Counted from the first letter of the stretch, positions 4,805 to 45,670 are shown. The stretch: DNA of 64,000 nt from an uncultured Thermoanaerobaculia bacterium (GCA_964420405.1 CAYQTL010000011.1:268-64267); one strand, 5' to 3'. The notes: generated from the sequence alone by a model not told the origin. Translations and numbers: made by a program.

Positions 4805-5103
4805 TCACCGCCACCCACTACGTGGTGCTGTCGCTCATCCTGCTGCTGCTCGGGGTCGTCGGCGTGATGGTGCGCCGCAACTTCATCACCGTGCTGATGT
4901 CGCTGGAGCTGGTGTTCAACGCGGTCAACCTCAACCTGATCGCGTTCTCCCACCGGTTCGCGGACCTCGAGGGGCAGGTGCTGGCGATCTTCGTCATCAC
5001 CATCGCCGCCGCCGAGGCGGCGATCGGGCTCGGCCTCATCATCGCGCTGGTGCGGCTGAAGAACACCGTCGCCCTCGACGAGGCCGCCGAGATGCGGAGC
5101 TGA
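4801..5103 (+). CDS. nuoK: NADH-quinone oxidoreductase subunit K
   Basis: A 100-aa protein with 3 TM segments and LELVFNAVNLNLIAFS. GTGA overlap with nuoJ. Confidence 0.9.
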   Translation: MITATHYVVLSLILLLLGVVGVMVRRNFITVLMSLELVFNAVNLNLIAFSHRFADLEGQVLAIFVITIAAAEAAIGLGLIIALVRLKNTVALDEAAEMRS

Positions 5104-5107
5104 CGGG

Positions 5108-7219
<2,112 letters not shown>

Positions 7220-7228
7220 GGAGCGAAG

Positions 7229-8839: not shown

Positions 8840-8842
8840 GCG

Positions 8843-10300
8843 ATGCCGCTGGAGCAGTTCGTCCCGTTCGTCCCGGAGATCTTCCTCGCGGTGGCGGCGC
8901 TCGTGCTGCTCCTGGCGGGGATCCCGCTGGGTCGGCACCGCCGTCCCCACGCCGCGGTGGGGTTGGGGGTGGCGTCGCTGGCGGTGACGGCGGCGCTGGT
9001 GCTGTGGCTCGGGCGGCCCGAGGGCGTGCCGGCCGCGACCCTCGGCGGGATGCTGGTGTTCGACGGCCTGGCGGTGTACTTCAAGCTGCTGGTCCTGCTC
9101 GGCTCGGCGATGGCGCTGGCCATGGCGCCCGGTTACCTGGAGCGGGCCGGCTACGGAGGCGGCGAGTTCACCTCGCTGGTGCTGTGCGCGACCCTCGGGA
9201 TGTTCGTGATGGCGTCGGGCGCGAGCCTCGCGAGCCTGTACGTCGGCCTCGAGCTGATGGCGCTGTCGGTCTACGTCCTGGTCGGGTTCTTCAAGCTCGA
9301 GGTGCGCTCCAACGAAGGGGCCGTCAAGTACTTCGTCCTCGGCGCCCTGTCGTCGGGGATCCTGCTGTACGGCATCTCCCTGGTCTACGGTGCCCTCGGC
9401 ACCCTGGACCTGCCGGAGATCCACGCCATCCTGGCGAGCACGCCGAGCGACAACCCCATGCTGCTGCTCGGCATCGTGCTGGTGTCGTTCGGGATGCTGT
9501 TCAAGGTCGCGGCGGTGCCGTTCCACGTCTGGACCCCCGACGCGTACGAGGGCGCCCCGACGCCGGTGACCGCGTTCATCGCGGCGGCGCCGAAGGCGGC
9601 CGCCTTTGCCATGTTCGTGCGCCTGTTCGCCGGCGCGTTCGCTCCCCAGGTGGAGCACTGGCGTCTGATCCTGTGGATCGCGGCGGCGGCCACCATGATC
9701 TACGGCAACGTCGCCGCGCTGACCCAGTCCAACGTCAAGCGGATGCTCGCCTACTCGTCGATCGCCCACGCCGGCTACGCCCTGCTCGGCCTGGTGGCGG
9801 CGACCGCCATGGGCACCTGGTCCGTGCTGCTGTACCTGCTGGTGTACACCTTCATGAACCTCGGCGCGTTCGGGTTCGTGATCCTGCTCGAGACCCGCGG
9901 CTACGCCGGCGGGACGATCGAGGACTTCGCCGGCCTCGCACGGCGCCATCCGGCCGCGGCCGCCGGCATGCTGATCTTCATGCTGGCGCTGGCCGGGATC
10001 CCGCCGACCGCGGGGTTCATGGGCAAGCTGTACCTGTTCGCGGCGGCGGTGGAGGCCGGCTACGTGGGTCTGGTGGTCATCGCCGTCCTCATGTCGGCGG
10101 TGAGCCTGTTCTACTACTTCCGCATCGTCGTCCAGATGTACCTGCGGGAGAGCGAGGCGGTCGGTGCGGAGCCGGTCCGCGACCGGTGGGTGGAGGCGAT
10201 GATCGCCCTGTGTGCGGTGGCGACGATCCTGATCGGCGTCGCGCCCGCGCCGGTGGTCGCCTGGGCCCGGGGTGGGCTCGAGGCGCTGACGTTGATGTGA
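8843..10300 (+). CDS. nuoN: NADH-quinone oxidoreductase subunit N
   Basis: Motif PFHVWTPDAYEGAPTPVTAFIAAAPKAAAF; last gene of the nuo array. Confidence 0.9.
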   Translation: MPLEQFVPFVPEIFLAVAALVLLLAGIPLGRHRRPHAAVGLGVASLAVTAALVLWLGRPEGVPAATLGGMLVFDGLAVYFKLLVLLGSAMALAMAPGYLERAGYGGGEFTSLVLCATLGMFVMASGASLASLYVGLELMALSVYVLVGFFKLEVRSNEGAVKYFVLGALSSGILLYGISLVYGALGTLDLPEIHAILASTPSDNPMLLLGIVLVSFGMLFKVAAVPFHVWTPDAYEGAPTPVTAFIAAAPKAAAFAMFVRLFAGAFAPQVEHWRLILWIAAAATMIYGNVAALTQSNVKRMLAYSSIAHAGYALLGLVAATAMGTWSVLLYLLVYTFMNLGAFGFVILLETRGYAGGTIEDFAGLARRHPAAAAGMLIFMLALAGIPPTAGFMGKLYLFAAAVEAGYVGLVVIAVLMSAVSLFYYFRIVVQMYLRESEAVGAEPVRDRWVEAMIALCAVATILIGVAPAPVVAWARGGLEALTLM

Positions 10301-31664: not shown

Positions 31665-32074
31665 GACGACGACTCCCCGCTGCGGCGGACCTCCGCCGCG
31701 CGCCGGTCCTGGCGCTCGCGGCGGAGCTTGAACTCGACGTACTCGTGGACCTCCTCGCGCGCCGCCGGGCTCAGCTCGCGCAGCATCTGCAGCATCTGCA
31801 TGTCGGCCTGGCTGAGGGGCTGGGCCGCCGGGCGGGCGGCCGGGGCCTCGTCGAAGAACTCGGAGATCTCGACCCCGAACACGCGCAGGATCCTGAAGAG
31901 GTTGTCGAGGGAGACGCGGTACTCGCCCTTCTCCATGCGCGACAGATCGGACTGTTGGATGCCGATTTGACGCGCCAGCTCCGCCTGGGTGAGCTGCCGC
32001 TGCTTGCGCAGCTTGCGCAGGCGGCTGCCGATGCTGGCGGCCTGCGGCACGGTCGGGGCGCTGCGTTGCGGCAT
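31661..32074 (-). CDS. XRE-family HTH transcriptional regulator with C-terminal extension
   Basis: Motif IGSRLRKLRKQRQLTQAELARQIGIQQSDLSRMEKGEYRVSLDNLFRILRVFG. Confidence 0.85.
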   Translation of the reverse strand: MPQRSAPTVPQAASIGSRLRKLRKQRQLTQAELARQIGIQQSDLSRMEKGEYRVSLDNLFRILRVFGVEISEFFDEAPAARPAAQPLSQADMQMLQMLRELSPAAREEVHEYVEFKLRRERQDRRAAEVRRSGESSS

Positions 32075-32096
32075 GTGGGTCCTTCGTCCTGTCTCG

Positions 32097-32114
32097 ATTC
32101 TACTACTCTACTAC
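32097..32114 (-). promoter_or_regulatory. TAGAATCG -10 box overlapped by a perfect tandem 8-mer (GTAGTAGA x2), candidate XRE operator
   Basis: The minus strand reads gGTAGTAGAGTAGTAGAATCGagac, 22 nt before the XRE ATG. The region is locally AT-rich. Confidence 0.5.
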
Positions 32115-32327
32115 CGTTTTCCTGCTTTGTCCGTGCCGTCCCGCCCGCCGCTTCCCCCGCGGGGGGCCGTCGTGTACCATCCACGCCGCGGCGGAGGCGC
32201 ACGGGCGTCTCTCGACTATAGTATGTGGTCGCAGCAAGACCGTCAACCGCGACCCGTCGTCCGCCGCGACGCGGCCGCGCGTCGCCCGGGCGACCGGCGC
32301 CCGGCCCGCCCCCCCGGAGGTCCACGC

Positions 32328-33182
32328 GTGACGCACGACAGCCGATGGCGACGGTACGGCCTGGCCTTCGCCCGCCTGCCGCTGGTCCTTTCCCGGCAGC
32401 GCTTCCTGCTCGCCCAGCTCGCCCGGCGCGCGTTCGCGGCGCGCCACGCCGGGCTCTACCTCGGGTGGCTGTGGACGCCGCTTTCGATCGTGGTCCAGTT
32501 CACCCTGTACCTGCTGGTGTTCTCGGTCATCCTGGAGCTCAAGGCCGAGAACCTTGGCATCGACCTTGCTAAGAGGGCGCCCGTGGGCTTCGGGGTGTTC
32601 CTGATCACCGGCATGGTGCCGTTCTTCGCCATCAACGACAGCGTCGTCCGGGCCGCGCGGGTGTTCCGCTCCCACTCGGCCCTGGTGCAGCGCATGCGGC
32701 TGCCGGCGGAGGTGCTGGTGGTGGGCGACATGGTGGGCGGGCTGGTCCACCACCTGGCGTCCCTGGCGCTGCTGGTGGGCTACTGCGTCTGGCAGGGGCA
32801 CATGATACCCTCGGACGCCGGCTGGCTGGCGCTCGCCTTCGTGGTGCTGTCGGTGTGGATCCTGGGCGTCGGGCTGGCGGTGGCGGTGGCCGGCGCGGTG
32901 CTGCCGGACCTGCCGGAGGTGCTGCAGCTCGGGCTGCAGGTGGCGTTCTTCGGGGCGCCGATCGTCTACCCGCTGGCGGCGGTCCCCGAGGGGCTGCTGC
33001 GGACGGCGGTGGAGCTGAACCCGGTGACCCAGATCGTGTCGCTGTGGCGCACGGCCCTGGTCGGCGCCGAGCCGCCGTCCGTGGCCGCGATCGCGGCGGT
33101 GGCGGTGATCGGCGTCGGCATCCTTGCGGTGGGTGCGGCGGCGCTCGAGCGGTGGCGGTACACCATCGCCGACCTGCTGTGA
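32328..33182 (+). CDS. ABC-2 type transporter permease (Wzm/TagG-like)
   Basis: GTG 32328 lies 7 nt after GGAGG. Motif LGWLWTPLSIVVQFTLYLLVFSVIL and 6 hydrophobic segments. The track start 31989 is rejected. Confidence 0.8.
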   Translation: MTHDSRWRRYGLAFARLPLVLSRQRFLLAQLARRAFAARHAGLYLGWLWTPLSIVVQFTLYLLVFSVILELKAENLGIDLAKRAPVGFGVFLITGMVPFFAINDSVVRAARVFRSHSALVQRMRLPAEVLVVGDMVGGLVHHLASLALLVGYCVWQGHMIPSDAGWLALAFVVLSVWILGVGLAVAVAGAVLPDLPEVLQLGLQVAFFGAPIVYPLAAVPEGLLRTAVELNPVTQIVSLWRTALVGAEPPSVAAIAAVAVIGVGILAVGAAALERWRYTIADLL

Positions 33183-33278
33183 GGGTGACGGTGCGAGGGT
33201 GAGCGAACGAGGACGACAGACGACGAGACCGCCGGGTGCGGGTGGGACCCCGACCCGGCGTCGGCAAGGGAGGCAGCG

Positions 33279-35057
33279 ATGATCGCGAAGCTGAGCAGCC
33301 CTGACGGTCGGCGACCGCACGGCATCGAGGACGAGATCACACCGGGATCCGGAGCCGCTCCGCGCTGGACGGGAGCGGTCCTGACGGCGGTCCTGTGCGC
33401 TGTGCTGGCGGCGGCGCCCGGCACAACGTGGGCCGACGAGGGCCCGGAGGAGACCGGTCAGGAGCCGGCCGCGGCCGAGACGCAGGCACCGGCAGCCGGC
33501 GAGGAGAACCCGCCCGTCGGCGGGGTCGACCTGGACATCATCCGCAAGGCGACCGAGCGCTCGTGGTCCGGCTTCCTCGAGCGCTGGCTGACGCCGATCC
33601 CGGTGCCGAAGAAGTCCGTGGTCTACCTCGAGGACGGCTACGCCCTGTCCCACCCGGCGGTGTCGTACAAGATGGAGGTCGTCCGCGAGGAGGGGGACAC
33701 CGTCTGGCTGCGCGGCCTGCCGCCGGAGGATCCCGAGTCGCCGCTGCATCCGCTCTGGCTGCAGCGCCAGCACAGCGAGATCCTCACCCAGGGCATCCAG
33801 GACTGGACCGCCGAGTACGGTGAGCCCTACTTCTTCCTCGACTTCACCGCCGAGCTGGTGCCGCCGCCGTTCGTCGACGGTTTCGAGTTCGTACCGACCG
33901 CAGAGGACCTGCCCAAGCGGGGCGGCTGGCAGATGAACATGGTCGTGGCGGACATGAACGGCGACGGCCACGCCGACCTCGTCCACCCGCCGACCCGCAA
34001 GGGCGAGGGACGGCCGTTCGTCTTCCTCGGTGACGGGGACGGCGGCTTCGAGCCGTGGGACGGCCAGATGTACTCGCGCAGGGTCCCGTTCGACTACGGC
34101 GGCGTGGCCGTGGCCGACTTCGACGGCGACGGCCACCGGGACATCGCCCTCGCGATCCACTTCAAGAGCCAGTGGGTGATGTACGGCGACGGGACCGGTG
34201 ACTTCACGCGGGTCGTCCGGCTGCCGAGCCCCGACCCGCGGATCACCTCGCGGGCGGTCACCGCGGCCGACTTCGACGGCGACGGCCGGGTCGACCTGGC
34301 GTTCCTGGCCGAGCTCGACCTCGACCTCGGCACCAACCTCCGCATCGACGACTCGCCGACGGTGTGGATCGCCCGCAACGGTCTCGACGGCTGGGGGCTC
34401 GTCAGCAAGGGGTTGGCCGGCCACCCGGTCATCGGCGACACGATCCGGTCCGCCGACTTCAACGGCGACGGCCTGCCGGACCTCGTGGTGTCCTCCAACG
34501 CCAACAACTACCGCGACCTGCTGCTGCTCAACCGGCCCGACGAGCCGTGGAAGTCGGCCGGCAGCCGGCTGGTGCTCGCCAGCGGGTACCACTTCGACAT
34601 CGCGCCGACCGTCGAGGGCGAGGGCGACGACGAGCAGGTGGTGGCCTATGCGACCTTCTCCCAGTTCCTCAAGGTCCTCGGCGACAACCAGACCCGCACC
34701 GGGATCATCCGGTACGTGGTCGGCGAGGAGGGCTTCGAGGCGCAGGGCGATCCGGTGGTGATGGACGACCAGCGGTACAACCCCTACTACCGGGTCACTT
34801 CCGGTGACATCAACGGCGACGGCCTCACCGACCTGGTGGCCGGCCGGAAGGGCGGCGGCCTGGAGGTCTACCTGCAGGTCTCGCCGGGAACCTGGTACCG
34901 CGAGCAGGCGCCCGAGCTCGCCGCCACCGGACGTCCCTACGACCTGCACCTCGTGGACCTCGACGGCGACGGGCGCGACGATCTGCTCGGCTGCTTCGCG
35001 GAAACCGAGAAGCACCCCGGCGGGGTGTGGGTGTGGATGACCCGTCCGAGGTCTTGA
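33279..35057 (+). CDS. Secreted FG-GAP/VCBS repeat protein
   Basis: Signal/TM segment AVLTAVLCAVLAAAPGTTWA. Six Ca-binding-type repeats (DMNGDGHADLV, DFDGDGHRDIA, DFDGDGRVDLA, DFNGDGLPDLV, DINGDGLTDLV, DLDGDGRDDLL). Confidence 0.85.
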   Translation: MIAKLSSPDGRRPHGIEDEITPGSGAAPRWTGAVLTAVLCAVLAAAPGTTWADEGPEETGQEPAAAETQAPAAGEENPPVGGVDLDIIRKATERSWSGFLERWLTPIPVPKKSVVYLEDGYALSHPAVSYKMEVVREEGDTVWLRGLPPEDPESPLHPLWLQRQHSEILTQGIQDWTAEYGEPYFFLDFTAELVPPPFVDGFEFVPTAEDLPKRGGWQMNMVVADMNGDGHADLVHPPTRKGEGRPFVFLGDGDGGFEPWDGQMYSRRVPFDYGGVAVADFDGDGHRDIALAIHFKSQWVMYGDGTGDFTRVVRLPSPDPRITSRAVTAADFDGDGRVDLAFLAELDLDLGTNLRIDDSPTVWIARNGLDGWGLVSKGLAGHPVIGDTIRSADFNGDGLPDLVVSSNANNYRDLLLLNRPDEPWKSAGSRLVLASGYHFDIAPTVEGEGDDEQVVAYATFSQFLKVLGDNQTRTGIIRYVVGEEGFEAQGDPVVMDDQRYNPYYRVTSGDINGDGLTDLVAGRKGGGLEVYLQVSPGTWYREQAPELAATGRPYDLHLVDLDGDGRDDLLGCFAETEKHPGGVWVWMTRPRS

Positions 35058-35118
35058 CGGGCCGGGATTCGTGTTGCCATAATGCCTGTCGTGTCGAAGC
35101 ACTTTGGATTTCCGGCTC

Positions 35119-35147
35119 TTGACGCGCCCCAGATGCGGTGCTATATT
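35119..35147 (+). promoter_or_regulatory. Strong sigma70-type promoter in an AT-rich island
   Basis: TTGACG (35119-35124), 17 nt, TATATT (35142-35147). It would give a ~150-nt leader before ATG 35301. Confidence 0.7.
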
Positions 35148-35300
35148 TTATGCTGTTACAGCATGAGATCGAGCTAAGATGAGTAGCTTCAAAAAGTTTC
35201 GGGAGGTGAGGCACAACGGAGGAGGGCAGGTTGGATCGCTCGCGTCGAACCTGAAAACGAGATCTCGAGAGGAAAATCGTTGAGAAGGAAGGAGTTGAGC

Positions 35301-36842
35301 ATGAAGAGGTTTCTGACCCTGGCGCTCGTGGCCGCGCTCGGACTGGGCGTGAGCAGCGCCGTGTACGCGAACGTGTGCGCGTTCGACCCGGTGCCGGCGG
35401 CGACGCTGCTGTTCCCGTTCGTGGCGTACGACTACGACGGCGGCTTCGGCGGCGACACCACGATCTTCTCGATCACCAACGTGTCGGCCGAGGCGCAGAT
35501 CGTCCACGTCACCCTGTGGACCGACTACTCGATCGCGATCCTCGACTTCAACATCCTGCTGACCGGCTACGACACCCAGCGGGTGAACATCCGCGACATC
35601 CTGGCCGACGGCCAGCTGCCGGTCACTGTGATCGCGACCCACGCGCAGACCCCGGGCAACGAGGGCGTGTTCCCCGACGGCCCGGTGTCGCCTGACAACG
35701 ACAACGGCGGCGGCGGTGCGAACACCGGTTCCTGGATCCAGGGCCTGCTGGAGTTCCCCGAGTCGACCAACGACCTCGGCAGCGACCGCTGCTCGACCAG
35801 CGACCAGGCCTACCCGGGTCTGTACGCCGACAACCTGATCCCGGCGACCCAGCTCGCGGCGTTCCAGGACTGGCTGCAGGCCAGCCAGACCGCGTCGCGC
35901 TCGCACGCCAACGACTGCAGCCCGCCGTACGGCCCGGCCTTCCAGATCAGCCCCGACCCGTGGTTCTACCTCCGGGATGAGACGGATCCGACCTGGATGT
36001 ACATCACGGCCGACGTGGTCGAGACCTGCAACCTCACCTTCCCGGACAACCCGGCGTACTACGTCGACGAGATCCGGTACGACAACGTCCTGATCGGCGA
36101 CGTGACCTGGCTGAACAACGACGAGCGGTTCTCCGAGGTGGACAACGCGATCCACATCGAGGCCGACATCGACCTCGCCCAGGTCGCCACCATCAACGCC
36201 GACAACGACCGTCCGGTGTCCTTCTACCACCGGTACTCGCAGAACGCGCAGTTCTCCGACTACCGCGAGCCGCTGCCGACCGCCTGGGCGTTCCGCTACC
36301 AGGGCGCGCAGGACGACGGCACCCTCGACACGCTCATCCGGGCGTGGAAGGGCAGCTCGCTGTGGCCGACCGTGTACGACCTCGAGTTCAACCCGCCCAA
36401 CGTGGGCCCGGACTCCTTCATCGCGAGCAACTGCTACGCGTACACCTACTACGCCTGGGATGAGGACGAGGACGTCATCACCGTGACCGACTTCCCGTGG
36501 TCGCAGCCCGGCGGCGGCCTCATCATCCCGAACCTCCTGCCGCTCGAGACCCAGGAAGTCTCGGTCGACGAGTTCGACACCGTCGACACCTTCGGCTGGA
36601 TGCTCTTCGTGTGGCCGGCGTCCAACTACGTCGGCATCCCCGGCGCCCCGGCGCCGCCGGACTTCTACCAGACCTGGATGGGCGTGAAGTACGTGAAGGC
36701 TGGCGACTACTCCGCCGCGACCAGCGGTGCGGTGATGGCCAACTTCAACTGCTTCTCCGACCAGGTGCTGCCGAACCTCGGCATCGACTACAACTACGTC
36801 GACCAGTTCGGCTACGTGTCCTCGCCGTCGCTCTTCGAGTAA
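35301..36842 (+). CDS. Secreted hypothetical protein (513 aa), no family recognised
   Basis: AAGGAG RBS and signal peptide MKRFLTLALVAALGLGVSSAVYA. GC3-rich host-like codons. Own promoter and terminator. Confidence 0.8.
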   Translation: MKRFLTLALVAALGLGVSSAVYANVCAFDPVPAATLLFPFVAYDYDGGFGGDTTIFSITNVSAEAQIVHVTLWTDYSIAILDFNILLTGYDTQRVNIRDILADGQLPVTVIATHAQTPGNEGVFPDGPVSPDNDNGGGGANTGSWIQGLLEFPESTNDLGSDRCSTSDQAYPGLYADNLIPATQLAAFQDWLQASQTASRSHANDCSPPYGPAFQISPDPWFYLRDETDPTWMYITADVVETCNLTFPDNPAYYVDEIRYDNVLIGDVTWLNNDERFSEVDNAIHIEADIDLAQVATINADNDRPVSFYHRYSQNAQFSDYREPLPTAWAFRYQGAQDDGTLDTLIRAWKGSSLWPTVYDLEFNPPNVGPDSFIASNCYAYTYYAWDEDEDVITVTDFPWSQPGGGLIIPNLLPLETQEVSVDEFDTVDTFGWMLFVWPASNYVGIPGAPAPPDFYQTWMGVKYVKAGDYSAATSGAVMANFNCFSDQVLPNLGIDYNYVDQFGYVSSPSLFE

Positions 36843-36865
36843 GCGACACCACGAGCGAGACCACA

Positions 36866-36895
36866 GCGGGGCGGCCTTCGGGCCGCCCCGCTTTT
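36866..36895 (+). terminator. Intrinsic terminator
   Basis: gcggggcggcc-ttcg-ggccgccccgc followed by tttt. Confidence 0.85.
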
Positions 36896-36965
36896 CGTCC
36901 TCCGGCTCGCCTTTGAAACAGGGCTCCAGAACCGTCCACCCCGATCCGGAGACGAGGCCGAACAA

Positions 36966-37013
36966 CTCAGGAATCGCTCTGATTCCTGAGATCCGAGGTG
37001 ACCGCGGTCACCT
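36966..37013. promoter_or_regulatory. Two perfect palindromes upstream of the giant-gene promoter
   Basis: ctcaggaatc-gctct-gattcctgag (36966-36990) and the 18-bp palindrome aggtgaccgcggtcacct (36996-37013), 58-105 bp upstream of the -35. Confidence 0.45.
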
Positions 37014-37070
37014 TCGCTTCGTCCATTCTAAGTTCCTGATTCACATAACGGTTCTACCACGTCGACGCGC

Positions 37071-37100
37071 TTGACAGCGGGAAACGGGCCTCCGTATAGT
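37071..37100 (+). promoter_or_regulatory. sigma70-type promoter of the giant gene
   Basis: TTGACA (37071-37076), 18 nt, TATAGT (37095-37100). GGAGG at 37109-37113. Confidence 0.65.
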
Positions 37101-37118
37101 GGAGCCGTGGAGGTGAGC

Positions 37119-40100
37119 ATGGCGTGCTCCCATTCCCCCGGATCGAGCTTCCTCCGGCGTCTCGCGTGGGCGTCGGTCCTGATCATGGCGGGGACGTCGG
37201 TCCCTGCGGCCGCCCAGGCGCCGTGTCTGGACTGGGTCGACGACCTGCACAACTCGTCGGACAACTGCCTGTCGCACCCGGCGATCCCCCGCTACCTCAT
37301 GAGCCACCTGCTCGACTGGAACGGGACGCCGTACTACGTGGTCGACAACGGCAACAACCTCGAGTTCTGGGACATCGGCACCAACCCGCTGGATCCGGTG
37401 CGGTGGGAGTTCAGCTCGTTCGGGGTCCCCAACCAGGGCGACTCGGACTACGACCTGCTCACCTTCTCGGTCTGCGACGGCTGCCGCTTCGGCACCGCGA
37501 GCTACAAGCTCGGCCTGGTCCTGTTCGACCTCGGCACCGGGACCCGGCCGCGGGTCGAGGGGAGCACCTTCCTGCAGGGCGCCCCGATCGGCGCGTTCAC
37601 CTTCGAGTCGGGCAGCTCGCAGTACGTCATCACCAAGGGGCTGCCGGACAGCTGCACCGGCGGCGGCTCGACGCTGTACGAGGTCTCCCGCGACGGCGCC
37701 GACGTCGTCCTCGACCGGCTCAGCTGCGTCGAGCTGCCCGGCGGGGCCACCTTCCAGCCGGCCGGTGGCGTCTCGATCGACGGGCCCGACGGCCAGTACC
37801 TGTACCTCGCCAAGACCACCTCCCCGATCTCGGTCTTCAAGGTGATCCCGGCGGGCGGCTCCATCAGCCTCCAGTACGTGGACGTGGGCGGCGACCCCCG
37901 GCTGCGGGCGGTGATGCAGTTCGGCAAGGGCATGTCCTACGACGAGTCCCGCGACCTGCTCGCGACGGCCTACGAGAGCCGCGGCCTGACGTTATGGGAC
38001 GTGTCCAACCCGGCGAGCCCCCAGGAGATCTGGTCGGATGCGAACCTCGTCGCGAGCCGGGTGGCCCTCGGGCCGGGCTTCATGCATGTCACGGGCCCGA
38101 GCCTGGGTGACGTCTACTCCTACGACATCTCCAACCTCTCCAACCCGGTGCTGGTGGACCCCGACTTCTGGGACCTCGACAACAGCTGGAACGAGAACTG
38201 CTCGCTCGCCACCAACTACGACGGCATCTTCCACCCGACGGAGCCGATCGCCTACGTGGCGCGGTTCGCCAAGGACCAGATCATCGACTACCGGCCGTGC
38301 GGCGGCGGCGTCGCCCCGACCGCGGCCGTGTCGCTCGAGCCCGCGATCGCCTTCCCGGGCGACACGGTGACGGTCGGCAACGTCTCGCTGGGGGCCTTCA
38401 CCCGCTCCGCGGTGTGGGTCACCAGCGGCGACGATCCCCACGGCACGGTGGTCGGAGGCTCGGACGACCTGTCGGCCGGGACCCCGTCGTCGCGGGTGTT
38501 CCCGCTCCCGCAGGACCTCCAGCAGGGCCTCGGCTTCTGGGCGCACGTGGCGGTCGAGTCGGACGAGTTCCCGTACACCCCGGGCGCGACCCCCGACCAG
38601 ATCGACTCGGTGACGGTGGGCATCGACCGCACCCCCGAGGTCGGCATCGACCAGAGCGACCCGGCGCCGATCACCGGCGAGACGGTGACGTTCACGGCCG
38701 TCGCCGAGGGCAATCCACCCTCGGACGCCTACCTGTGGACCGTGACCGAGCCCGGCGGCCAGCCCACGGCGCTGGACATCGTCGGACCCCAGGTGCAGGT
38801 GGAGCTCTCCGAGAGCGGGGAGTGGGCGGTCGACGTCAGCGTGAGCTACCTCCACCAGGGGCTGACGGGAGGGCCGTACGTGGCCACCGCCGGCCTCGAC
38901 CTCGACATCAGCTCGGTCGCCGCGGCCCTCGAGGTGCTGCCGGCGAGCCCGCTGCACAACGAGCCGATCACGCTCAACAACCTCTCGGCCGTGGCCTCCG
39001 GCGCGACCCTCGACCTCGACTTCGACGTGCTGAACGCCTCCGGGACGAGCGTCGTCAACGAGCTCTCGTTCTGCGACGGTGCCGGCACCATCTCCACCGA
39101 CTGCGAGATCCCGGCCGAGACCCTGACGCCGGCGACCTACACCTTCCAGCTCACGGTCACCAACACCGACACGGGCGACCTCTCCACCGCCTCCGAGCAG
39201 GTCCAGGTGCAGGACGGCAGCCTGCAGCCGGTGATCCAGGTGTCCGACGCGACCCCCGACATCGGCAAGGTCATCACGTTCACGATCGGCGGCGTGCCGT
39301 CGGTGGAGCGAACCACCTGGAACTTCGGCGGCCCGGGCTGCTCGCCCTACGCCGTCACCGAGGTCTGCGAGCCCGGGATCTTCGGCAACTGCCTCGCCCA
39401 GACCTACTCCTACGCCACCGCGGGGGCCAAGACGGCCCAGGTGACCATTCGCTACAACAGCAACGACTTCGGCCCCTACCAGATCAACCTCGACGTCAAC
39501 AACACCGGCAGCTGCACCGGCGGCGGCGGCGGTGGTGGTGGCGGCGGCGGCGGCGGGACCTGCACCTACACCATCAGCCCGACGTTCGGCTTCGCCGACG
39601 CCCCCGGCGGCAGCGGGGCCTTCTCGCTCTCCACCCAGAGCGGGTGCGGCTGGAACGCCTCGTCGAACCGCAGCTGGCTCACCGTCAGCCCGACCAGCGG
39701 CAACGGCTCGAGGACCATCAGCTGGCAGGCGGCGTCGAACCCGGCCGAGGAGCGCACCGGCACCATCACCGCCGGCGGCAAGAGCTATACCGTCACCCAG
39801 GGCGGCCAGCCGCAGTGCGAGTACACCCTGTCGGCGACCACCAGTACCGTCTCCGCGACCGCCGGCACCGGCACCGTCACGGTCTCCACCACCTCGGGGT
39901 GCGAGTGGACCGCCATCTCCAGGGACGGCTGGATCCGGGTGACGTCGCCGGCCGACGGCAGCGGCGTCGGTTCCGGCACGGTGCGCTTCGCCTACGACGA
40001 GAACCCGTGGCAGGGTGAGCGCGAGGGGATCCTCGAGATCGCCGGCAACACCTACACCCTGGTCCAGAACCCGGTGATCCCGGCCAACTTCCAGATCTCG

Positions 40101-42767
40101 AAGACCAACCCGGACATCGGCGAGACGGTGACCTTCACGGTCGACCCGCGGCTCGAGGTGGCCAGCTGGGACTTCGGCGGCCCCAACTGCGACGAGGAGC
40201 CGGCGTTCGTCGACTGCGACACCATGCCCCAGTCCATGTGCCAGACGATCCAGTGGAGCTGGACCGAGCGTGGCCCGAAGACCATCACCATGGAGACCGC
40301 CGACGGCGACGTGGCGGAGAAGACCGTCTGGGTCCAGAACGCGGGCACGTGCCCGTGCAAGGACTCGGCGCCGACGGCCTCGTTCGAGCTCTCGCCCGAG
40401 ATCGCCGAGTACGGTGACACCGTGACCTTCACCGCCACCACCGGCGGCATCCCGTCCGCCAAGGTGCTGGCGCTGGACTTCCGCTGGGATCCCGTCGAGC
40501 CGAGGATCGGCCAGGGCGTCGACTTCCGGGTCGAGGGCGTCGCCGGGATCGACGAGGTGCGGTGGAACTTCGGCGGCTCCGGCTGCTCGCCGTTCACCCA
40601 GACCGCCACCTGCACACCGGGCCTCTTCAGCGACTGCACCCTCGAGCAGTACCAGTACGCGACCGCCGGCGCCAAGACCGTCACCCTGACGGTGATCGCC
40701 GACGGCCAGACCTTCGGCCCCGTCTCCCAGAGCCTCACCGTCCTCAACGAGGGATCGTGCTCCGGCGGCGGCGGCGGTGGCGGCGGCGGTGGTGGCGGCG
40801 GCTGCACGTACTCGCTCGCGCCGACCTCCGCCAGCTACCCGGCCGCCGGAGACACCGGCACCTTTGACGTCACCACCCAGAGCGGCTGCGCGTGGACCGC
40901 GTCCTCCAACCGGTCCTGGGCCCGGATCACCTTCCCGGACCCGCCCTCGGGCAGCGGCTCCAGCACCGTCGAGTACGTGGTGGACCCCAACACCGGCCTG
41001 CAGCGCAGCGGTGCCATCACGATCAGCTACACGGGCGGCTCGAAGACCCACACCTTCAGCCAGGGCGCCACCGGCGGCGGTGGCGGCGGTGGCGGTGGCG
41101 GTGGCGGGGGTGGCGGTGGCGGTGGCGGGACCACCGGCGACTCGAACCCCGACGAGTGGCATTGGACGATCTGGCGCAACGGCTCGGTGGTCGTGACCTC
41201 CGACCAGCCGATCTTCCAACACGAGTTCACCCTGCCCGGCGTGTACGACGTCGAGCTCGAGGTGGTGAACTGCGCGGGCTCCGACACCGCTACCGGTACC
41301 TTCGAGGTACTGCCCCCTCCGATCACCGCGGCGGAGGACTACGTGGTGCCGTCGGCCGTCCACACGGCGGGCCTCAACGACACCCTGTGGAAGACGGACC
41401 TGCGGCTGTACAACCCATGCGGGGAGGCTGCCAACATCCGCATCCGCTACCTTCCGGAGGACGTCAACAACGCCAGCGGCCAGATCAGCTACGTCAGAAA
41501 CGACACCCTGTCGCCCAACGGCACCAAGGTGTACGACGACGTGGTCGACCTGTACCCCCTCGACGGCGACGACCACAAGGGCTCGCTGCGGATCACCTTC
41601 CCCGGCGCCGAGACCTGCCGGCCGATGATCATGTCGCGGACCTACAACGACACCCCCTACGGCTCGTTCGGCCAGTTCGTGCCGGCGGTGCCGGTGCTGC
41701 CGTCGGAGGGCGGCGAGGTCCACCTCACCGGGCTCGTCCACAACCTGTTCTACCGGACGAACATCGGCTTCGCGAACCTGTCCGAGGAGGACGTCTGGGG
41801 AATCGAGATCGACGTCCTCGACCAGGACGGCAACCAGCTCGGCAGCACCGTCACCCGGATGGTGCCCGGGTTCTCCAGCGCGCAGGTCGTCAAGATCGCC
41901 GAGGCCGCCGGCGTCACCGGCAACCTGAACGTGTTCTCGGTGAGGATCCGGACCTCGAGCCCGGACATCACGGCCTACGCCTCGGTGGTGGACAACATCA
42001 CCGGCGACCCGGTCTACCTGACGCAGTCGGACACCGTCGACGAAATGGTGTACGTGCCGGGCGTCGCCCACCTGCCGGGGTTCAACGACTCCCGCTGGCG
42101 GACCGACTTCGCCCTCTACAACCCCCACGACTCCGACATCGACGTGCTGGTCCACTACGTGCCCGACGCGCCCCTCGACGAGCCTCCGTTCGACATCGAG
42201 ATCGTCGGCATGTACCCGGGCGTCGAGCGCTCCTGGATCGACGTCCTCGACACCCTCGCCAGCGAGCAGGACACGAAGGGCTACTTCGTGGTGTCGGCGA
42301 TGGACGACACGCCGCTGCCCCAGGTGGCGGCCCGGACCTACAACCTGTCGCTGTCGGGCGGAACCTTCGGCCAGAACCTGAAGGTCTACGGCTCGCGGGA
42401 CCTGATCCAGATCGGCGAGGTGGCGATCCTGCCCGGGATCTCCAACTCCTCCGACCGCGACACCGGCTTCCGGACCAACCTCGGCCTGCTCAACACCGGC
42501 ACGGACACCGCGATGGACGCCGAGATCACGCTGTACGGCGGCTCGGGCCAGGTGCTCGCCACCATGTACCAGCAGCTCGCCGCCGGCGAGTTCAAGCAGA
42601 TCAACAACATCTTCCAGGCCGCCGGCGTCGGCGACCTCGACGTCCAGGGCTCGATCGAGGTCCGGATCACCACAGGTGGTCCGGCCGCGGTCTACGCCTC
42701 GGAGGTCGACAACCGCACCCAGGACCCGATCCTGATCCCCGCCGAGCGGCTCCCGCCACTCGAGTAG
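37119..42767 (+). CDS. Giant secreted multidomain protein (1,882 aa): LVIVD-like propeller, Ig/PKD-like modules, BACON-like domains, poly-Gly linkers, unassigned tandem C-terminal domain
   Basis: Signal peptide MACSHSPGSSFLRRLAWASVLIMAGTSVPAAAQA. LVIVD-like strands (LEFWDIGTNPLDPV, LTLWDVSNPASPQEIW, VYSYDISNLSNPVLV). BACON-like CTYTISP...GCGWNASSNRSWLTV. Gly13, Gly13 and Gly19 tracts. Uniform GC3-rich codons. Confidence 0.85.
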   Translation: MACSHSPGSSFLRRLAWASVLIMAGTSVPAAAQAPCLDWVDDLHNSSDNCLSHPAIPRYLMSHLLDWNGTPYYVVDNGNNLEFWDIGTNPLDPVRWEFSSFGVPNQGDSDYDLLTFSVCDGCRFGTASYKLGLVLFDLGTGTRPRVEGSTFLQGAPIGAFTFESGSSQYVITKGLPDSCTGGGSTLYEVSRDGADVVLDRLSCVELPGGATFQPAGGVSIDGPDGQYLYLAKTTSPISVFKVIPAGGSISLQYVDVGGDPRLRAVMQFGKGMSYDESRDLLATAYESRGLTLWDVSNPASPQEIWSDANLVASRVALGPGFMHVTGPSLGDVYSYDISNLSNPVLVDPDFWDLDNSWNENCSLATNYDGIFHPTEPIAYVARFAKDQIIDYRPCGGGVAPTAAVSLEPAIAFPGDTVTVGNVSLGAFTRSAVWVTSGDDPHGTVVGGSDDLSAGTPSSRVFPLPQDLQQGLGFWAHVAVESDEFPYTPGATPDQIDSVTVGIDRTPEVGIDQSDPAPITGETVTFTAVAEGNPPSDAYLWTVTEPGGQPTALDIVGPQVQVELSESGEWAVDVSVSYLHQGLTGGPYVATAGLDLDISSVAAALEVLPASPLHNEPITLNNLSAVASGATLDLDFDVLNASGTSVVNELSFCDGAGTISTDCEIPAETLTPATYTFQLTVTNTDTGDLSTASEQVQVQDGSLQPVIQVSDATPDIGKVITFTIGGVPSVERTTWNFGGPGCSPYAVTEVCEPGIFGNCLAQTYSYATAGAKTAQVTIRYNSNDFGPYQINLDVNNTGSCTGGGGGGGGGGGGGTCTYTISPTFGFADAPGGSGAFSLSTQSGCGWNASSNRSWLTVSPTSGNGSRTISWQAASNPAEERTGTITAGGKSYTVTQGGQPQCEYTLSATTSTVSATAGTGTVTVSTTSGCEWTAISRDGWIRVTSPADGSGVGSGTVRFAYDENPWQGEREGILEIAGNTYTLVQNPVIPANFQISKTNPDIGETVTFTVDPRLEVASWDFGGPNCDEEPAFVDCDTMPQSMCQTIQWSWTERGPKTITMETADGDVAEKTVWVQNAGTCPCKDSAPTASFELSPEIAEYGDTVTFTATTGGIPSAKVLALDFRWDPVEPRIGQGVDFRVEGVAGIDEVRWNFGGSGCSPFTQTATCTPGLFSDCTLEQYQYATAGAKTVTLTVIADGQTFGPVSQSLTVLNEGSCSGGGGGGGGGGGGGCTYSLAPTSASYPAAGDTGTFDVTTQSGCAWTASSNRSWARITFPDPPSGSGSSTVEYVVDPNTGLQRSGAITISYTGGSKTHTFSQGATGGGGGGGGGGGGGGGGGGGTTGDSNPDEWHWTIWRNGSVVVTSDQPIFQHEFTLPGVYDVELEVVNCAGSDTATGTFEVLPPPITAAEDYVVPSAVHTAGLNDTLWKTDLRLYNPCGEAANIRIRYLPEDVNNASGQISYVRNDTLSPNGTKVYDDVVDLYPLDGDDHKGSLRITFPGAETCRPMIMSRTYNDTPYGSFGQFVPAVPVLPSEGGEVHLTGLVHNLFYRTNIGFANLSEEDVWGIEIDVLDQDGNQLGSTVTRMVPGFSSAQVVKIAEAAGVTGNLNVFSVRIRTSSPDITAYASVVDNITGDPVYLTQSDTVDEMVYVPGVAHLPGFNDSRWRTDFALYNPHDSDIDVLVHYVPDAPLDEPPFDIEIVGMYPGVERSWIDVLDTLASEQDTKGYFVVSAMDDTPLPQVAARTYNLSLSGGTFGQNLKVYGSRDLIQIGEVAILPGISNSSDRDTGFRTNLGLLNTGTDTAMDAEITLYGGSGQVLATMYQQLAAGEFKQINNIFQAAGVGDLDVQGSIEVRITTGGPAAVYASEVDNRTQDPILIPAERLPPLE

Positions 42768-42796
42768 GACCAGCGGGCCGCGACGCAGAGCCACCA

Positions 42797-42824
42797 GGGG
42801 CGGCCCCGCGGGGCCGCCCCTTTC
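42797..42824 (+). terminator. Intrinsic terminator of the giant gene
   Basis: ggggcggcc ... ggccgcccc followed by tttcc. Confidence 0.75.
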
Positions 42825-42854
42825 CTGTCGAGGTTCTGCGGTCCCATCACGTGT

Positions 42855-43078
42855 CCGCCCCCGATCCCGATGGCAGCGACACTGTCAGGGTCAGCGGCGG
42901 CCGGGTCGCGGACAGAGGCAGAGGCGACCGGCCTGCGGGCATCGTGGGGGGTCCTTCGACTCCCGGCACGCCTCCGGCGTGCCGCTCGCTCAGGATGACG
43001 GCAGGAGAGGCGGCCTCCGGCGTGCCGCTCGCTCAGGATGACGGCAGGGGAGGCCGCCTCCGGCGAGGATGGCGGCGC
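42855..43078. repeat. Repeat-family copy (H-S-B) ending in a 43-bp tandem repeat of about 2.5 units
   Basis: cccgatcccgatggcagcgacactgtcagggtcagcg ... ggtccttcgactcccggcacgcctccggcgtgccgctcgctcaggatgacgg. The unit cctccggcgtgccgctcgctcaggatgacggcagg.gagg starts at 42971, 43014 and 43057. Confidence 0.85.
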
Positions 43079-43535
43079 CTGGGTGTCGCGCTCGGTCAGT
43101 GTCACGGGAGGGGGCCCTCTTTGAATGGTCCCTGCTCGCGAGGACGGCCCAGGGAGGGCCTCCGTCCGCGTCGACCGGTCACGGGACGTGCGGTGCGTCG
43201 CCGGGGTCCGACGGGCGCGAACGGCGGACCCACGTGTTTCCGCGCGCGACTCGAGACCCGTGCGCCCCGTGACGGTGTCTCGAGATGGCCCGTGAGCACC
43301 AGCGAGCACCGGAGTCGTGGTGTCCCCACCCCGGGACGCGCTTGCAGTGCTGCTGTCGCCCTTCTGGGGGCCAGATTCCCGTCGGCGATGACCCGAGACG
43401 GTGCGCCAGCGCCGGCGAGCCCTTCCGCGCAGCCGCCCCGCACAGGAGGCGCCAGCATCCTGGACGAGTGCCGGGGTGTCGCGTGACGCCGCCCGCCCTA
43501 TGGGACGGCGCCACGCGGCGACGTCCCGGCAGCCC

Positions 43536-44354
43536 TCAGAGCTCGCCCTCCTCGATCGCCTCGAGCCGCTCGGGGTGGACGAAGAGCGACGGGTCGAACG
43601 GGCCGAGCACCTCGGGCTCGATCTCGACGATCCGGTTGTGGCCGGTCGGCCCGCCCCCGACCGCGAACCCCTCCATGAGGATCTGGGTCGGCAGCCGGAC
43701 ACCGTCGACGCTCTTCGTCCGCAGCACCTTGTAGCGCATGCCTTCGTCGACCACGTCCTGCATCGTCTCGGGGGGCGTGACGGCGACCGTCAGCAGCTCG
43801 AGGGTCTCCTGGTCCACCTCGAGGGCCCAGCTTCCGCCGGCCATGCTCGGAGCGAGGAAGAACCCCGGCGGGATCGTGATCTGCGCCTGCCAGGTGGGCC
43901 GGCCCTGGCTCGTCGACGCCCTCACCTCGCCGAGGGCCACCCCGTCCATCTCGAGAGAGAACGGCAGCAGCATCGGGAAGACCTTCTGGTTCACGGTGCC
44001 GCGGCTCATCTTCGCCGCCTGCGGCCGCTCGTCGACCTCGCCCTTGACCAGCGCCCACGAGTCGCCCTCGTTGCGCACCACCGTGGCGCCGTTGCGGAAC
44101 TCGAGCCGCGCGTTGTCCGGGTTCGGCATGTACACGGTGAGGTCGAGCAGGGTCTGGAACTGGCGCCCGTCGGCCAGCGTCTCCTGCTCCTCGACGCCGA
44201 ACCGGACGGTACCCAGCCTGGCCAGCGCGTCGTGGCCGCCGGCCGCCTCGACGATCCTCTCCACCAGCTCCTCCGGGCTCGGCGGCGCAGCCAGCACCGG
44301 CGCCGCGACCACCATCGCGAGCACTGCCGTCATCGTCCACCGGCGGTAGTGCAT
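43536..44354 (-). CDS. Secreted hypothetical protein (272 aa)
   Basis: ATG 44354 gives the signal peptide MHYRRWTMTAVLAMVVAAPVLAAP. The N-terminal EELVERIVEAAGGHDALARL pattern is reminiscent of LolA-like/DUF secreted proteins, but this is weak. Confidence 0.65.
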   Translation of the reverse strand: MHYRRWTMTAVLAMVVAAPVLAAPPSPEELVERIVEAAGGHDALARLGTVRFGVEEQETLADGRQFQTLLDLTVYMPNPDNARLEFRNGATVVRNEGDSWALVKGEVDERPQAAKMSRGTVNQKVFPMLLPFSLEMDGVALGEVRASTSQGRPTWQAQITIPPGFFLAPSMAGGSWALEVDQETLELLTVAVTPPETMQDVVDEGMRYKVLRTKSVDGVRLPTQILMEGFAVGGGPTGHNRIVEIEPEVLGPFDPSLFVHPERLEAIEEGEL

Positions 44355-44455
44355 GTCGTCTCCTCCCTTTCTGCGGTGCCGTTCCGGCACCTTTCCGTCA
44401 CGGCCGGCGAGTATAAAGCAATCGTCGTGCCACCGCTGTGGTACTCTCCCGCCGC

Positions 44456-45670
44456 ATGCGCAGCGCCGGGTTCGGGCACGCCGTCGTCGTCGACAACGTC
44501 CACAAGTGGTACCGGGTCTACGCCTCCCCGTTCGAGCGGGTCAAGCGGGTCGTGGGCGCCCCCAGCCGCCACCTGGACTTCCGCGCCCTCGACGATGTGT
44601 CGTTCGCCATCCGTCGTGGCGCGGCGGTCGGCGTCATCGGCGAGAACGGCGCCGGCAAGTCCACCCTGCTCAAGCTGATCGCCGGCACGACCCGGCCGAC
44701 CGCGGGGACGGTCGAGGTCGAGGGCTCGGTGGCGGCGATCCTCGAGCTCGGGGCGGCGTTCCATCCGGAGTTCACCGGCCGCGACAACGCGATCCTGTAC
44801 GGCGCGATGCTCGGCATCGACCGTCCGGACATGGAGCGGCGCCTCGGCGACGTGTTCGGCTTCGCCGAGCTGGGCGAGTTCGTCGAGCACCCGATCAAGA
44901 GCTACTCCACCGGCATGCAGATGCGGCTCGCCTTCGCCGTCGCGACCCACGTCGATCCCGACGTCCTGGTGGTCGACGAGGCGCTGGCGGTGGGCGACGG
45001 CTACTTCCAGAAGAAGTGCGTCGACCGGATCCTCGAGATCCGCGAGCGCGGCACCACGATCCTGTTCTGCTCCCACTCCATGTACTACGTGTCCATGTTC
45101 TGCGAGCGCGTGATCTGGCTGCGCTCGGGGCGCGTCGTGGCCGACGGTCCGCCCCAGGAGGTGGTGACGGCCTACGAGGAGTTCCTCGTCAACCGCGAGC
45201 GCAGGCGGCTCGAAGGCGGCGCCGGGGAGGGAGCCGAGGCGCGGCCGGAGCGGCCCGGGCAGGCGGCGAGGATCGTCGCGCTGCGGGTGCTCGACGGCGA
45301 CGACCGCGAGCTCGGCGGCTACCGCCCCGGCGAGCCGGTGACGGTGGAGATCGAGTGGGAGGCGGCCGACCCTGACGCCGAGCTGCACCTGGGGGTCGCC
45401 CTGGAGCGGGGCGACGGCATGCGCCTGGTCGGGGTGGCGACGTTCCTGGACGGTCTGCCGCCGCTCCGCGGCGGCGGGATCCGCAAGGCCCGGGTCCGCT
45501 TCCCCGGCGTGCCTTTGGCCAAGGGGCACTACGCCGTCACCGGCTACCTGTTCGACCGCTCGGGGCTGCACATCTGGGACGAGGTGGTCGTGCCCGACCG
45601 GCTCAAGCCGGCCTCGGAGAAGTGGCAGCCGGCGGTGCTGCAGCTCGACCACCGGTGGGAGACGCCGTGA
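44456..45670 (+). CDS. ABC transporter ATP-binding protein, Wzt/TagH-like with ~160-aa C-terminal extension
   Basis: Walker A GENGAGKSTLLKLI, signature YSTGMQMRLAFA, Walker B VLVVDEALAVGD. Alternative start GTG 44438. Confidence 0.88.
   Translation: MRSAGFGHAVVVDNVHKWYRVYASPFERVKRVVGAPSRHLDFRALDDVSFAIRRGAAVGVIGENGAGKSTLLKLIAGTTRPTAGTVEVEGSVAAILELGAAFHPEFTGRDNAILYGAMLGIDRPDMERRLGDVFGFAELGEFVEHPIKSYSTGMQMRLAFAVATHVDPDVLVVDEALAVGDGYFQKKCVDRILEIRERGTTILFCSHSMYYVSMFCERVIWLRSGRVVADGPPQEVVTAYEEFLVNRERRRLEGGAGEGAEARPERPGQAARIVALRVLDGDDRELGGYRPGEPVTVEIEWEAADPDAELHLGVALERGDGMRLVGVATFLDGLPPLRGGGIRKARVRFPGVPLAKGHYAVTGYLFDRSGLHIWDEVVVPDRLKPASEKWQPAVLQLDHRWETP

Follow-up and report, generated by a model that had tools for sequence, protein, structure and literature searches.

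The last 478 residues of a giant secreted protein encoded in a 64,000-nucleotide stretch of DNA from an uncultured Thermoanaerobaculia bacterium (GCA_964420405.1, CAYQTL010000011.1:268-64267; the whole stretch is called the window here) are four related beta-sandwich domains of ~115 amino acids (aa), arranged in the order A1-B1-A2-B2. These subdomains very probably form a tetrad of the ASRAH type, that is, of a superfamily predicted to bind sugars. We favor the combined statement that the ASRAH-type tetrad acts as a non-catalytic binding module, and give it a probability of about 0.5. The region that encodes it, 41331-42767, is the C-terminal quarter of a single plus-strand open reading frame (ORF) at 37071-42767, as seen in the ORF list and its translation. 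A preliminary description had pointed to two consecutive segments of ~235 aa in this region that follow a common pattern, and the analysis below starts from that repeat.

The repeat is real. Copy 1 (41331-42038) and copy 2 (42039-42764), ~235 aa each, give an alignment of 239 columns (31% identity, 46% positives; BLASTP E=1e-19), and the start, middle and end motifs that had been listed for the two segments are all present in both. The start motif reads VVPSAVHTAGLNDTLWKTDLRLYNP in copy 1 and YVPGVAHLPGFNDSRWRTDFALYNP in copy 2, the middle motif SRTYN...GSFGQF and ARTYN...GTFGQN, and the end motif AYASVVDNITGDPV and VYASEVDNRTQDPI, respectively. Two hidden Markov models (HMMs), one made from homologues of copy 1 and the other from those of copy 2, both recover the two window copies (1e-49 to 1e-76), and no module was found in the other ORFs of the window when these were scanned with the two HMMs.

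The earlier term "pair" nevertheless captures only part of the duplication. The module is a tetrad and not a pair, because each ~235-aa copy comprises two homologous subdomains of ~115 aa, which emerge when the alignment is split at the boundaries of the structural model. A-type and B-type subdomains match each other with hhalign probabilities of 95-97% (E=5.9e-8 to 8.2e-11; 95-96% for A1 against B1 and B2), and the matches between A1 and A2 (E=8.8e-41) and between B1 and B2 (E=4.8e-39) are far below these E-values. In nearly all homologues the first repeat fits the copy-1 model best and the second the copy-2 model, and since this order is kept, both duplications predate the spread of the family. 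The tetrad arose through two successive duplications, the older of which is the one inside each copy.

All four subdomains lie on the plus strand, delimited by hhalign together with the AlphaFold2 strands for A1, A2 and B2, and by hhalign against B2 for B1. A1 occupies 41331..41696 (module residues 1-122), B1 41697..42038 (residues 123-236), A2 42039..42404 (residues 237-358) and B2 42405..42764 (residues 359-478). The AlphaFold2 model of the tetrad, built with 70 homologues, is all-beta and confident (predicted local distance difference test, pLDDT, 95.0; predicted template-modeling score, pTM, 0.93), with a secondary-structure pattern that recurs four times; repeat 2 modeled alone scores equally well (pLDDT 95.1, pTM 0.91). 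In this model the four subdomains are predicted to pack as one rigid unit.

The conserved residues follow the same four-fold plan. The most conserved motif of the module, (W/F)-R-T-(D/N)-L-x-L-x-N, is found on strand 2. In A-type subdomains strand 2 has the consensus W-(K/R)-T-D...N and the last strand (S/A)-R-T-Y-N, together with a loop G-(S/T)-F-G-Q; these are seen as WKTD...LYN, SRTYN and GSFGQ in A1 and as WRTD...LYN, ARTYN and GTFGQ in A2. In B-type subdomains strand 2 follows (F/Y)-R-T-N-(L/I)-G-x-x-N and the end Y-A-S-x-V-D-N-x-T-x-D-P. Strand 2 reads YRTNIGFAN in B1 and FRTNLGLLN in B2, and the last strand of B1 bears AYASVVDNITGDP; VYASEVDNRTQDP in B2 is followed by 12 residues, the end of the protein and the stop codon (42765-42767). 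Residues invariant across the 70 homologues include W256 and T336 in A2 and N383 and D460 in B2.

The ASRAH superfamily was defined from ASRT and TM1070 by De Souza, Iyer and Aravind (2009; PMC2739507). The kinds described include solo proteins that form tetramers, secreted tetrads of Chloroflexi fused to amidases, and lipoprotein dyads of actinobacteria (PMC2739507). The prediction for ASRAH domains is that sugars bind in a cleft which strand 2 lines and the neighboring domain completes; the strand-2 signature SHExxCxxN makes up the predicted ligand contacts of ASRT, and every family has its own residues at the signature positions (PMC2739507). Further marks of the superfamily are a nearly invariant Asn that closes strand 2 ahead of a tight turn and is described as turn-stabilizing, and a conserved Trp that opens strand 1 behind a polar residue (PMC2739507).

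Structure prediction followed by Foldseek, the check proposed in the preliminary description, gave a confident model and a placement at the level of this superfamily. TM1070 (1nc7) is the sole compact match in the Protein Data Bank (PDB), both with the tetrad model and with the repeat-2 model (probability 1.00; target-normalized template-modeling (TM) score 0.67-0.72; root-mean-square deviation (rmsd) 3.8-4.2 Å over 117-120 columns). The remaining PDB matches are multi-domain sandwich arrays with an rmsd of 16-39 Å. Those with the top E-values for the tetrad are arrays of immunoglobulin (Ig) and fibronectin type III (FnIII) domains, namely PrgB, complement C5, RbmA and transglutaminases, which were rejected as generic beta-sandwich arrays because of their low TM scores (0.10-0.19) and large rmsd (18-39 Å). 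GH2 enzymes, found with the single repeat, are also generic beta-sandwich matches (rmsd 16-18 Å).

Sequence profiles single out the same proteins. A profile of 49 pooled subdomains, searched against 177,635 PDB sequences, matches only ASRT (2ii7, E=0.008; 2iia) and TM1070 (E=2.2), and aligns the conserved strand-2 Asn of the module with the Asn of ASRT. The window copies themselves have no match among PDB sequences in phmmer. A thin ASRT profile, composed of six short fragments found with a 45-aa fragment query, matches B2 with an hhalign probability of 88-91% (E=1e-6 to 3e-6) and B1 with 72%. In the B2 alignment SHETxCxLN lies on FRTNLGLxN, where the H, E and C of ASRT pair with R, T and G, respectively. 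The Asn that closes the strand-2 motif is N28, N149, N264 and N388 in the four subdomains, and is invariant or nearly so in close homologues and less strict across all 70.

Two Pfam families are touched by relatives of the window protein. The best family match to ASRT (PF07100, gathering score 25 bits) is the B1-equivalent of homologue P0066, with 19.3 bits (E=1.2e-3, profile positions 26-108 of 119); no family member reaches the gathering score, and the window protein has no match to this model. The cut-off of DUF5719 (PF18986, gathering score 26.2 bits) is passed by five of the 70 homologues (27.7-31.6 bits), where the best matches cover ~200 residues, corresponding to one A-B repeat; neither the window copies nor the whole giant protein match DUF5719 at E<=1. 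Apart from a weak match of FxLYD_dom in B1 (E=0.037), no Pfam or NCBIfam model matches the window copies, and NCBIfam scans of 20 members of the module family found nothing. By Pfam criteria the module is outside both PF07100 and PF18986.

Because the fold match, the pooled-profile search and the Pfam matches of homologues converge, we place the subdomains in ASRAH with considerable assurance, and regard the module as a new family that lies either inside that superfamily or at its border. The earlier statement that it belongs to no named family therefore stands for the window copies in Pfam and NCBIfam, and gives way at the superfamily level, where the module can be assigned as ASRT/TM1070-like; none of the matches was to a family whose function is known, the result that would have refuted the preliminary description. 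The searchable literature yielded no description of the module family, and came back empty for DUF5719 as well as for surface proteins of Thermoanaerobaculia.

How widespread is the module? An HMM search of 1.84 billion cluster representatives returned 11,664 at E<=1e-3, of which 4,435 reach E<=1e-30, so that the family, for which an HMM scan had been suggested at the outset, comprises no fewer than 11,664 clusters (50% identity). A word-indexed search gave 171 proteins carrying the module, and the named ones among them all come from metagenome-assembled genomes labeled Acidobacteriota or Thermoanaerobaculia. In a genome scan with one genome per GTDB species, for which the query was an alignment of 19 closer sequences, 302 encoding stretches were found, several genomes giving more than one locus; the best 78 of these 302 loci, to which all counts of neighbors and orthologues below refer, are nearly all labeled Thermoanaerobaculia, Thermoanaerobaculales, Holophagae or Acidobacteriota.

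The architectures are dominated by very large proteins. The 145 best new representatives have a median length of 2,079 aa, with some longer than 5,000 aa; most of them open with a signal peptide, which puts them outside the cytoplasm. The module ends no more than 15 residues from the C-terminus in 139 of them (96%), with nothing after it in 128. Its partners comprise PKD, BACON, Kelch, DUF11, fn3, cadherin-like and plastocyanin domains, and also beta-lactamase-like, peptidase M10, FGE-sulfatase and NosD/beta-helix domains. In a minority the module comes straight after the Sec signal peptide and the other domains lie C-terminal to it (P0063, P0065, P0069, P0073, P0086, P0090, P0096 and P0176). 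A single A-B repeat and stand-alone secreted versions occur as well (P0117, P0103-P0109). A genome may hold many paralogues of the module with unrelated passenger domains. The preliminary description had seen in it the functional head of this one protein, a view that does not survive: thousands of giant proteins that are otherwise unrelated end in this module, which is also found N-terminally. A shared targeting or anchoring module fits better than a protein-specific head, because unrelated giants have it in common and carry it at either terminus.

What might a targeting module of this kind recognize? The argument for a glycan is that the conserved (W/F)-R-T-(D/N)-L-x-L-x-N shares its strand with the predicted ligand contacts of ASRT. 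Packed together, the four sandwiches would offer as many as four clefts with the RT(D/N) strands as their lining, and a portable module with such clefts could target or tether giant surface proteins, as well as certain secreted enzymes, to polysaccharide. Of the two roles first proposed, "binding or catalytic", binding is the most plausible; that the ligand is a glycan is a tentative suggestion, to which we give slightly less than even odds.

Several points weigh against an ASRAH-type binding module. The sequence link to ASRT is borderline, with no direct match from the window copies, and the thin ASRT profile finds the A-type subdomains with hhalign probabilities of 34% (A1) and 5% (A2). The strand-1 Trp of ASRAH has no clear counterpart in the module, where strand 1 reads (V/I)-P-x-V/A-A-H or L-x-G-L and a conserved Trp (W20, W256) sits at the start of strand 2 in A-type subdomains only; the hhalign alignment stops short of the Trp of ASRT. 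Much of the conservation, as in the strand-end Asn, the Gly and the Arg/Asp pairs, could be structural only. An experimentally shown sugar ligand was not found for any ASRAH protein in the sources consulted, and the function of the superfamily is itself a prediction. Finally, the synteny with polysaccharide-export genes of the Wzm/Wzt type, described below, belongs to the whole orthologous giant protein.

A structural reading of the conservation leads to the account that fares best among the alternatives, in which the tetrad is a cap or an oligomerization unit that ends or multimerizes long fibrous proteins and has no small ligand. A very confident and rigid model (pTM 0.93) would suit such a part, and so would partner regions that are long Ig-like repeat arrays; the conserved Asn has a turn-stabilizing role assigned to it and solo ASRAH proteins do form tetramers (PMC2739507). 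Against a cap, near-invariant polar residues (R, T, D/N and Q) come back at equal strand positions in each of the four subdomains, and this on the very strand that lines the predicted TM1070 cleft; to be fused to secreted enzymes is, moreover, a typical trait of binding modules. We consider a purely structural role unlikely.

The C-terminal position raises another possibility, namely that the tetrad is a sorting, secretion or attachment domain, read by dedicated export or anchoring machinery and binding no ligand. This would explain why it is C-terminal in 96% of the top representatives, 128 of the 145 without a residue after it, and why many paralogues with unrelated passengers share it within a genome. 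Sorting domains such as the C-terminal domain of type IX secretion are short (~70-100 aa) and confined to the extreme C-terminus. The module, in contrast, has 478 aa, several times the size of known sorting domains, and it occurs directly after signal peptides, as a single A-B repeat and in stand-alone secreted versions. It matches no sorting-domain model of NCBIfam or Pfam, and a machinery gene that recurs beside the paralogues was not found. A sorting role is accordingly rated as quite unlikely.

The other proposal of the preliminary description had been a catalytic head, which would be an enzyme with a substrate outside the cell, and invariant Asp, Asn, Arg and Thr residues could be read that way. 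It is nevertheless highly improbable: the subdomains are small beta-sandwiches whose sole compact structural relative is non-enzymatic, the conserved motifs are repeated four times instead of forming a single site, the module accompanies real catalytic domains, and no catalytic family of Pfam or NCBIfam matches. A chance or compositional origin of the similarity between the copies, conceivable in a window of ~70% GC and a protein with low-complexity poly-Gly stretches, is excluded by the compositionally adjusted BLASTP score (E=1e-19), by thousands of homologues that keep order and motifs, and by the confident structure prediction.

The giant protein that ends in the ASRAH-type tetrad can be delimited more closely. 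Its ORF opens at TTG 37071, with an alternative ATG at 37119. The true start is probably the ATG, because a strong Shine-Dalgarno-like GGAGGTG lies 5 nt upstream of it and translation from there gives a normal signal peptide; the giant secreted protein then spans 37119..42767 on the plus strand and has 1882 aa (translation, GC content at third codon positions (GC3), and Pfam matches to BACON_2, BACON and PKD). The coding frame has a GC3 of 0.96, and an overlapping minus-strand ORF of 1,600 aa is a high-GC shadow. Elsewhere in the window, at 5060-10297, three successive long plus-strand ORFs (719, 539 and 486 aa; GC3 0.97) without the module are overlain by a minus-strand shadow ORF of 1,987 aa.

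From the N-terminus, the giant protein consists of a Sec signal peptide, an N-terminal region, Ig/PKD-like repeats, BACON domains set apart by poly-Gly linkers, a PKD domain and the tetrad. The N-terminal ~420 aa (37119-38400) may be a beta-propeller; they have a sub-threshold match to the LVIVD repeat (16.4 bits, cut-off 20.2). An AQ-x-C-x-x-W segment after the signal peptide looks alike in P0122, P0146 and P0208, three top representatives about as long as the giant protein. Linkers made of glycine alone, with 13, 13 and 19 residues, lie at 39519-39557, 40764-40802 and 41073-41129, between BACON/PKD units, and a unit made of a Cys-rich PKD-like domain, poly-Gly and BACON occurs in duplicate. 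The 19-Gly linker precedes the PKD domain at 41130..41309 on the plus strand (Pfam PKD, residues 1363-1413; PKD_4, residues 1354-1413), which immediately precedes the module; the order poly-Gly, BACON, poly-Gly, PKD and module recurs in close homologues.

Upstream PKD domains are the source of two leads that were dropped. The only PDB matches of the full alignment profile are PKD domains of collagenases, obtained through the upstream PKD columns and not through the module. NCBIfam matches to PamR, an RbmA-like pilus protein of the candidate phyla radiation (CPR), fall in the upstream PKD domains of P0088 (residues 138-186, 69.6 bits) and P0067 (residues 98-153, 21.5 bits), for a cut-off of 300; they are cross-matches of Ig-like domains and have no link to the module.

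The gene for the giant protein is embedded in a conserved cluster, at 31989-45670 in the window. The order is Wzm, FG-GAP protein, 551-aa protein, giant protein, ~272-aa protein, Wzt and a GNAT-like gene. The product of the first gene (31989..33182, plus strand) is the ABC-2 membrane component, of the Wzm type, of a polysaccharide exporter (Pfam ABC2_membrane), and its homologues lie upstream in 18 loci. It is followed on the same strand by an FG-GAP/VCBS-repeat protein (33189..35057; Pfam FG-GAP_3, 5.7e-37), a neighbor in 26 loci, and, directly upstream of the giant gene, by the conserved secreted protein given as 551 aa (~513 aa for the interval 35301..36842) with a signal peptide in its translation, found in 30 loci with 55-61% identity. 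This protein has no match in Pfam; its residues 293-378 show a weak phmmer match to the N0-type domain of Xanthomonas VirB7 (6gyb_a, E=0.0023).

Downstream of the giant gene lies a conserved secreted protein of ~272 aa (43536..44354, minus strand), present in 31 loci on either strand and without a match in Pfam or the PDB. The plus-strand gene at 44438..45670 encodes a Wzt-type ABC ATPase with the C-terminal glycan-recognition domain of Wzt (Pfam ABC_tran, Wzt_C), whose homologues occur downstream in 20 loci with 55-64% identity. Orthologues of the giant protein, of 1,750-1,950 aa, are found in about 35 related loci. Four genes for secreted proteins are thus inserted between Wzm and Wzt, and each neighbor is present in 18-31 of the 78 loci. 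The 551-aa, ~272-aa and FG-GAP proteins were rejected as relatives of the module (hhalign probability 0.1-1.1%).

Among the paralogues of the module no recurrent neighbors were found beyond the orthologous Wzm...Wzt cluster. Since the paralogues share no recurrent neighbor, the link to the exporter concerns the orthologous giant protein and not the module in general. Two or three module genes are adjacent in the loci L033, L044, L062 and L067, with three module ORFs within 6 kb in L062, which points to local expansion of paralogues.

For the giant protein of the window, the glycan exported by Wzm/Wzt would be a candidate ligand. That the module tethers the protein to a polysaccharide exported by the cell itself is a doubtful proposition, more so than the binding of a glycan as such. 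It is less likely again, taken as one joint proposal, that the tetrad serves Thermoanaerobaculia as the recognition element of an as yet undescribed system of surface display, a common non-covalent anchor by which dozens of giant proteins and enzymes per cell are held to an O-antigen-like polysaccharide, in the case of this protein the one that Wzm/Wzt exports.

The fold of the module, and probably its function, are of a familiar type; the family, however, is a very large one without a Pfam or NCBIfam model, and so marks a gap in coverage. A family HMM would improve the annotation of thousands of proteins now labeled "hypothetical" or "PKD repeat". The module is the one element shared by many giant secreted proteins of Thermoanaerobaculia-type Acidobacteriota, and its placement would extend a little-studied superfamily, sugar-binding purely by prediction, to a new phylum, with a new architecture in which a fused A-B-A-B tetrad ends proteins of 1,000-5,000 aa. 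It offers a testable hypothesis on the means by which the largest surface proteins of these bacteria are targeted or tethered, and the tetrad is a compact, confidently modeled target for structural and glycan-binding work.

Compared with ASRT (2II7; PF07100) and Thermotoga TM1070 (1NC7), the module has in common an all-beta sandwich of ~115 aa, the association of domains four at a time, an Asn at the end of strand 2 and a family-specific signature on that strand. Differently to these solo cytoplasmic proteins, which form homotetramers, it fuses the four domains in one secreted chain and has diverged them into types A and B. Its signature, (W/F)RT(D/N)LxLxN, takes the place of SHExxCxxN in ASRT, and it has additional conserved motifs (RTYN, GTFGQ and VDNxTxDP) that set it apart from both proteins. 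RbmA, the biofilm matrix protein of Vibrio cholerae that appeared among the Foldseek matches of the tetrad, is a two-sandwich protein that binds exopolysaccharide, but superposes poorly on the module (TM 0.12-0.24, rmsd about 19 Å).

With the carbohydrate-binding modules of glycoside hydrolases and with non-covalent surface anchors such as SLH domains, which bind secondary cell-wall polymers, the likeness is one of functional analogy only, in that one beta-sandwich module is appended to varied secreted enzymes and surface proteins at either terminus; there is no kinship of sequence or of specific fold. DUF5719 (PF18986), a family without known function, is probably the actinobacterial lipoprotein dyad family of the ASRAH paper, to judge from a WhiB/glycosyltransferase context. 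It differs from the module in being a dyad and not a tetrad, in its flanking extensions and in its taxonomy; dyad-only relatives of the module also exist.

The amidase-associated ASRAH tetrads of Chloroflexi (family 2, PMC2739507) resemble the module in being secreted, in having four tandem ASRAH domains and in being fused to a functional domain. They are always joined to an N-acetylmuramoyl-L-alanine amidase, occur mainly in Roseiflexus, Chloroflexus and Herpetosiphon, and are predicted to bind a carbohydrate of the cell envelope (PMC2739507). The module, set apart from them on the basis of their description, is instead combined with many partners, mostly in giant repeat proteins, and occurs in genomes labeled Thermoanaerobaculia or other Acidobacteriota.

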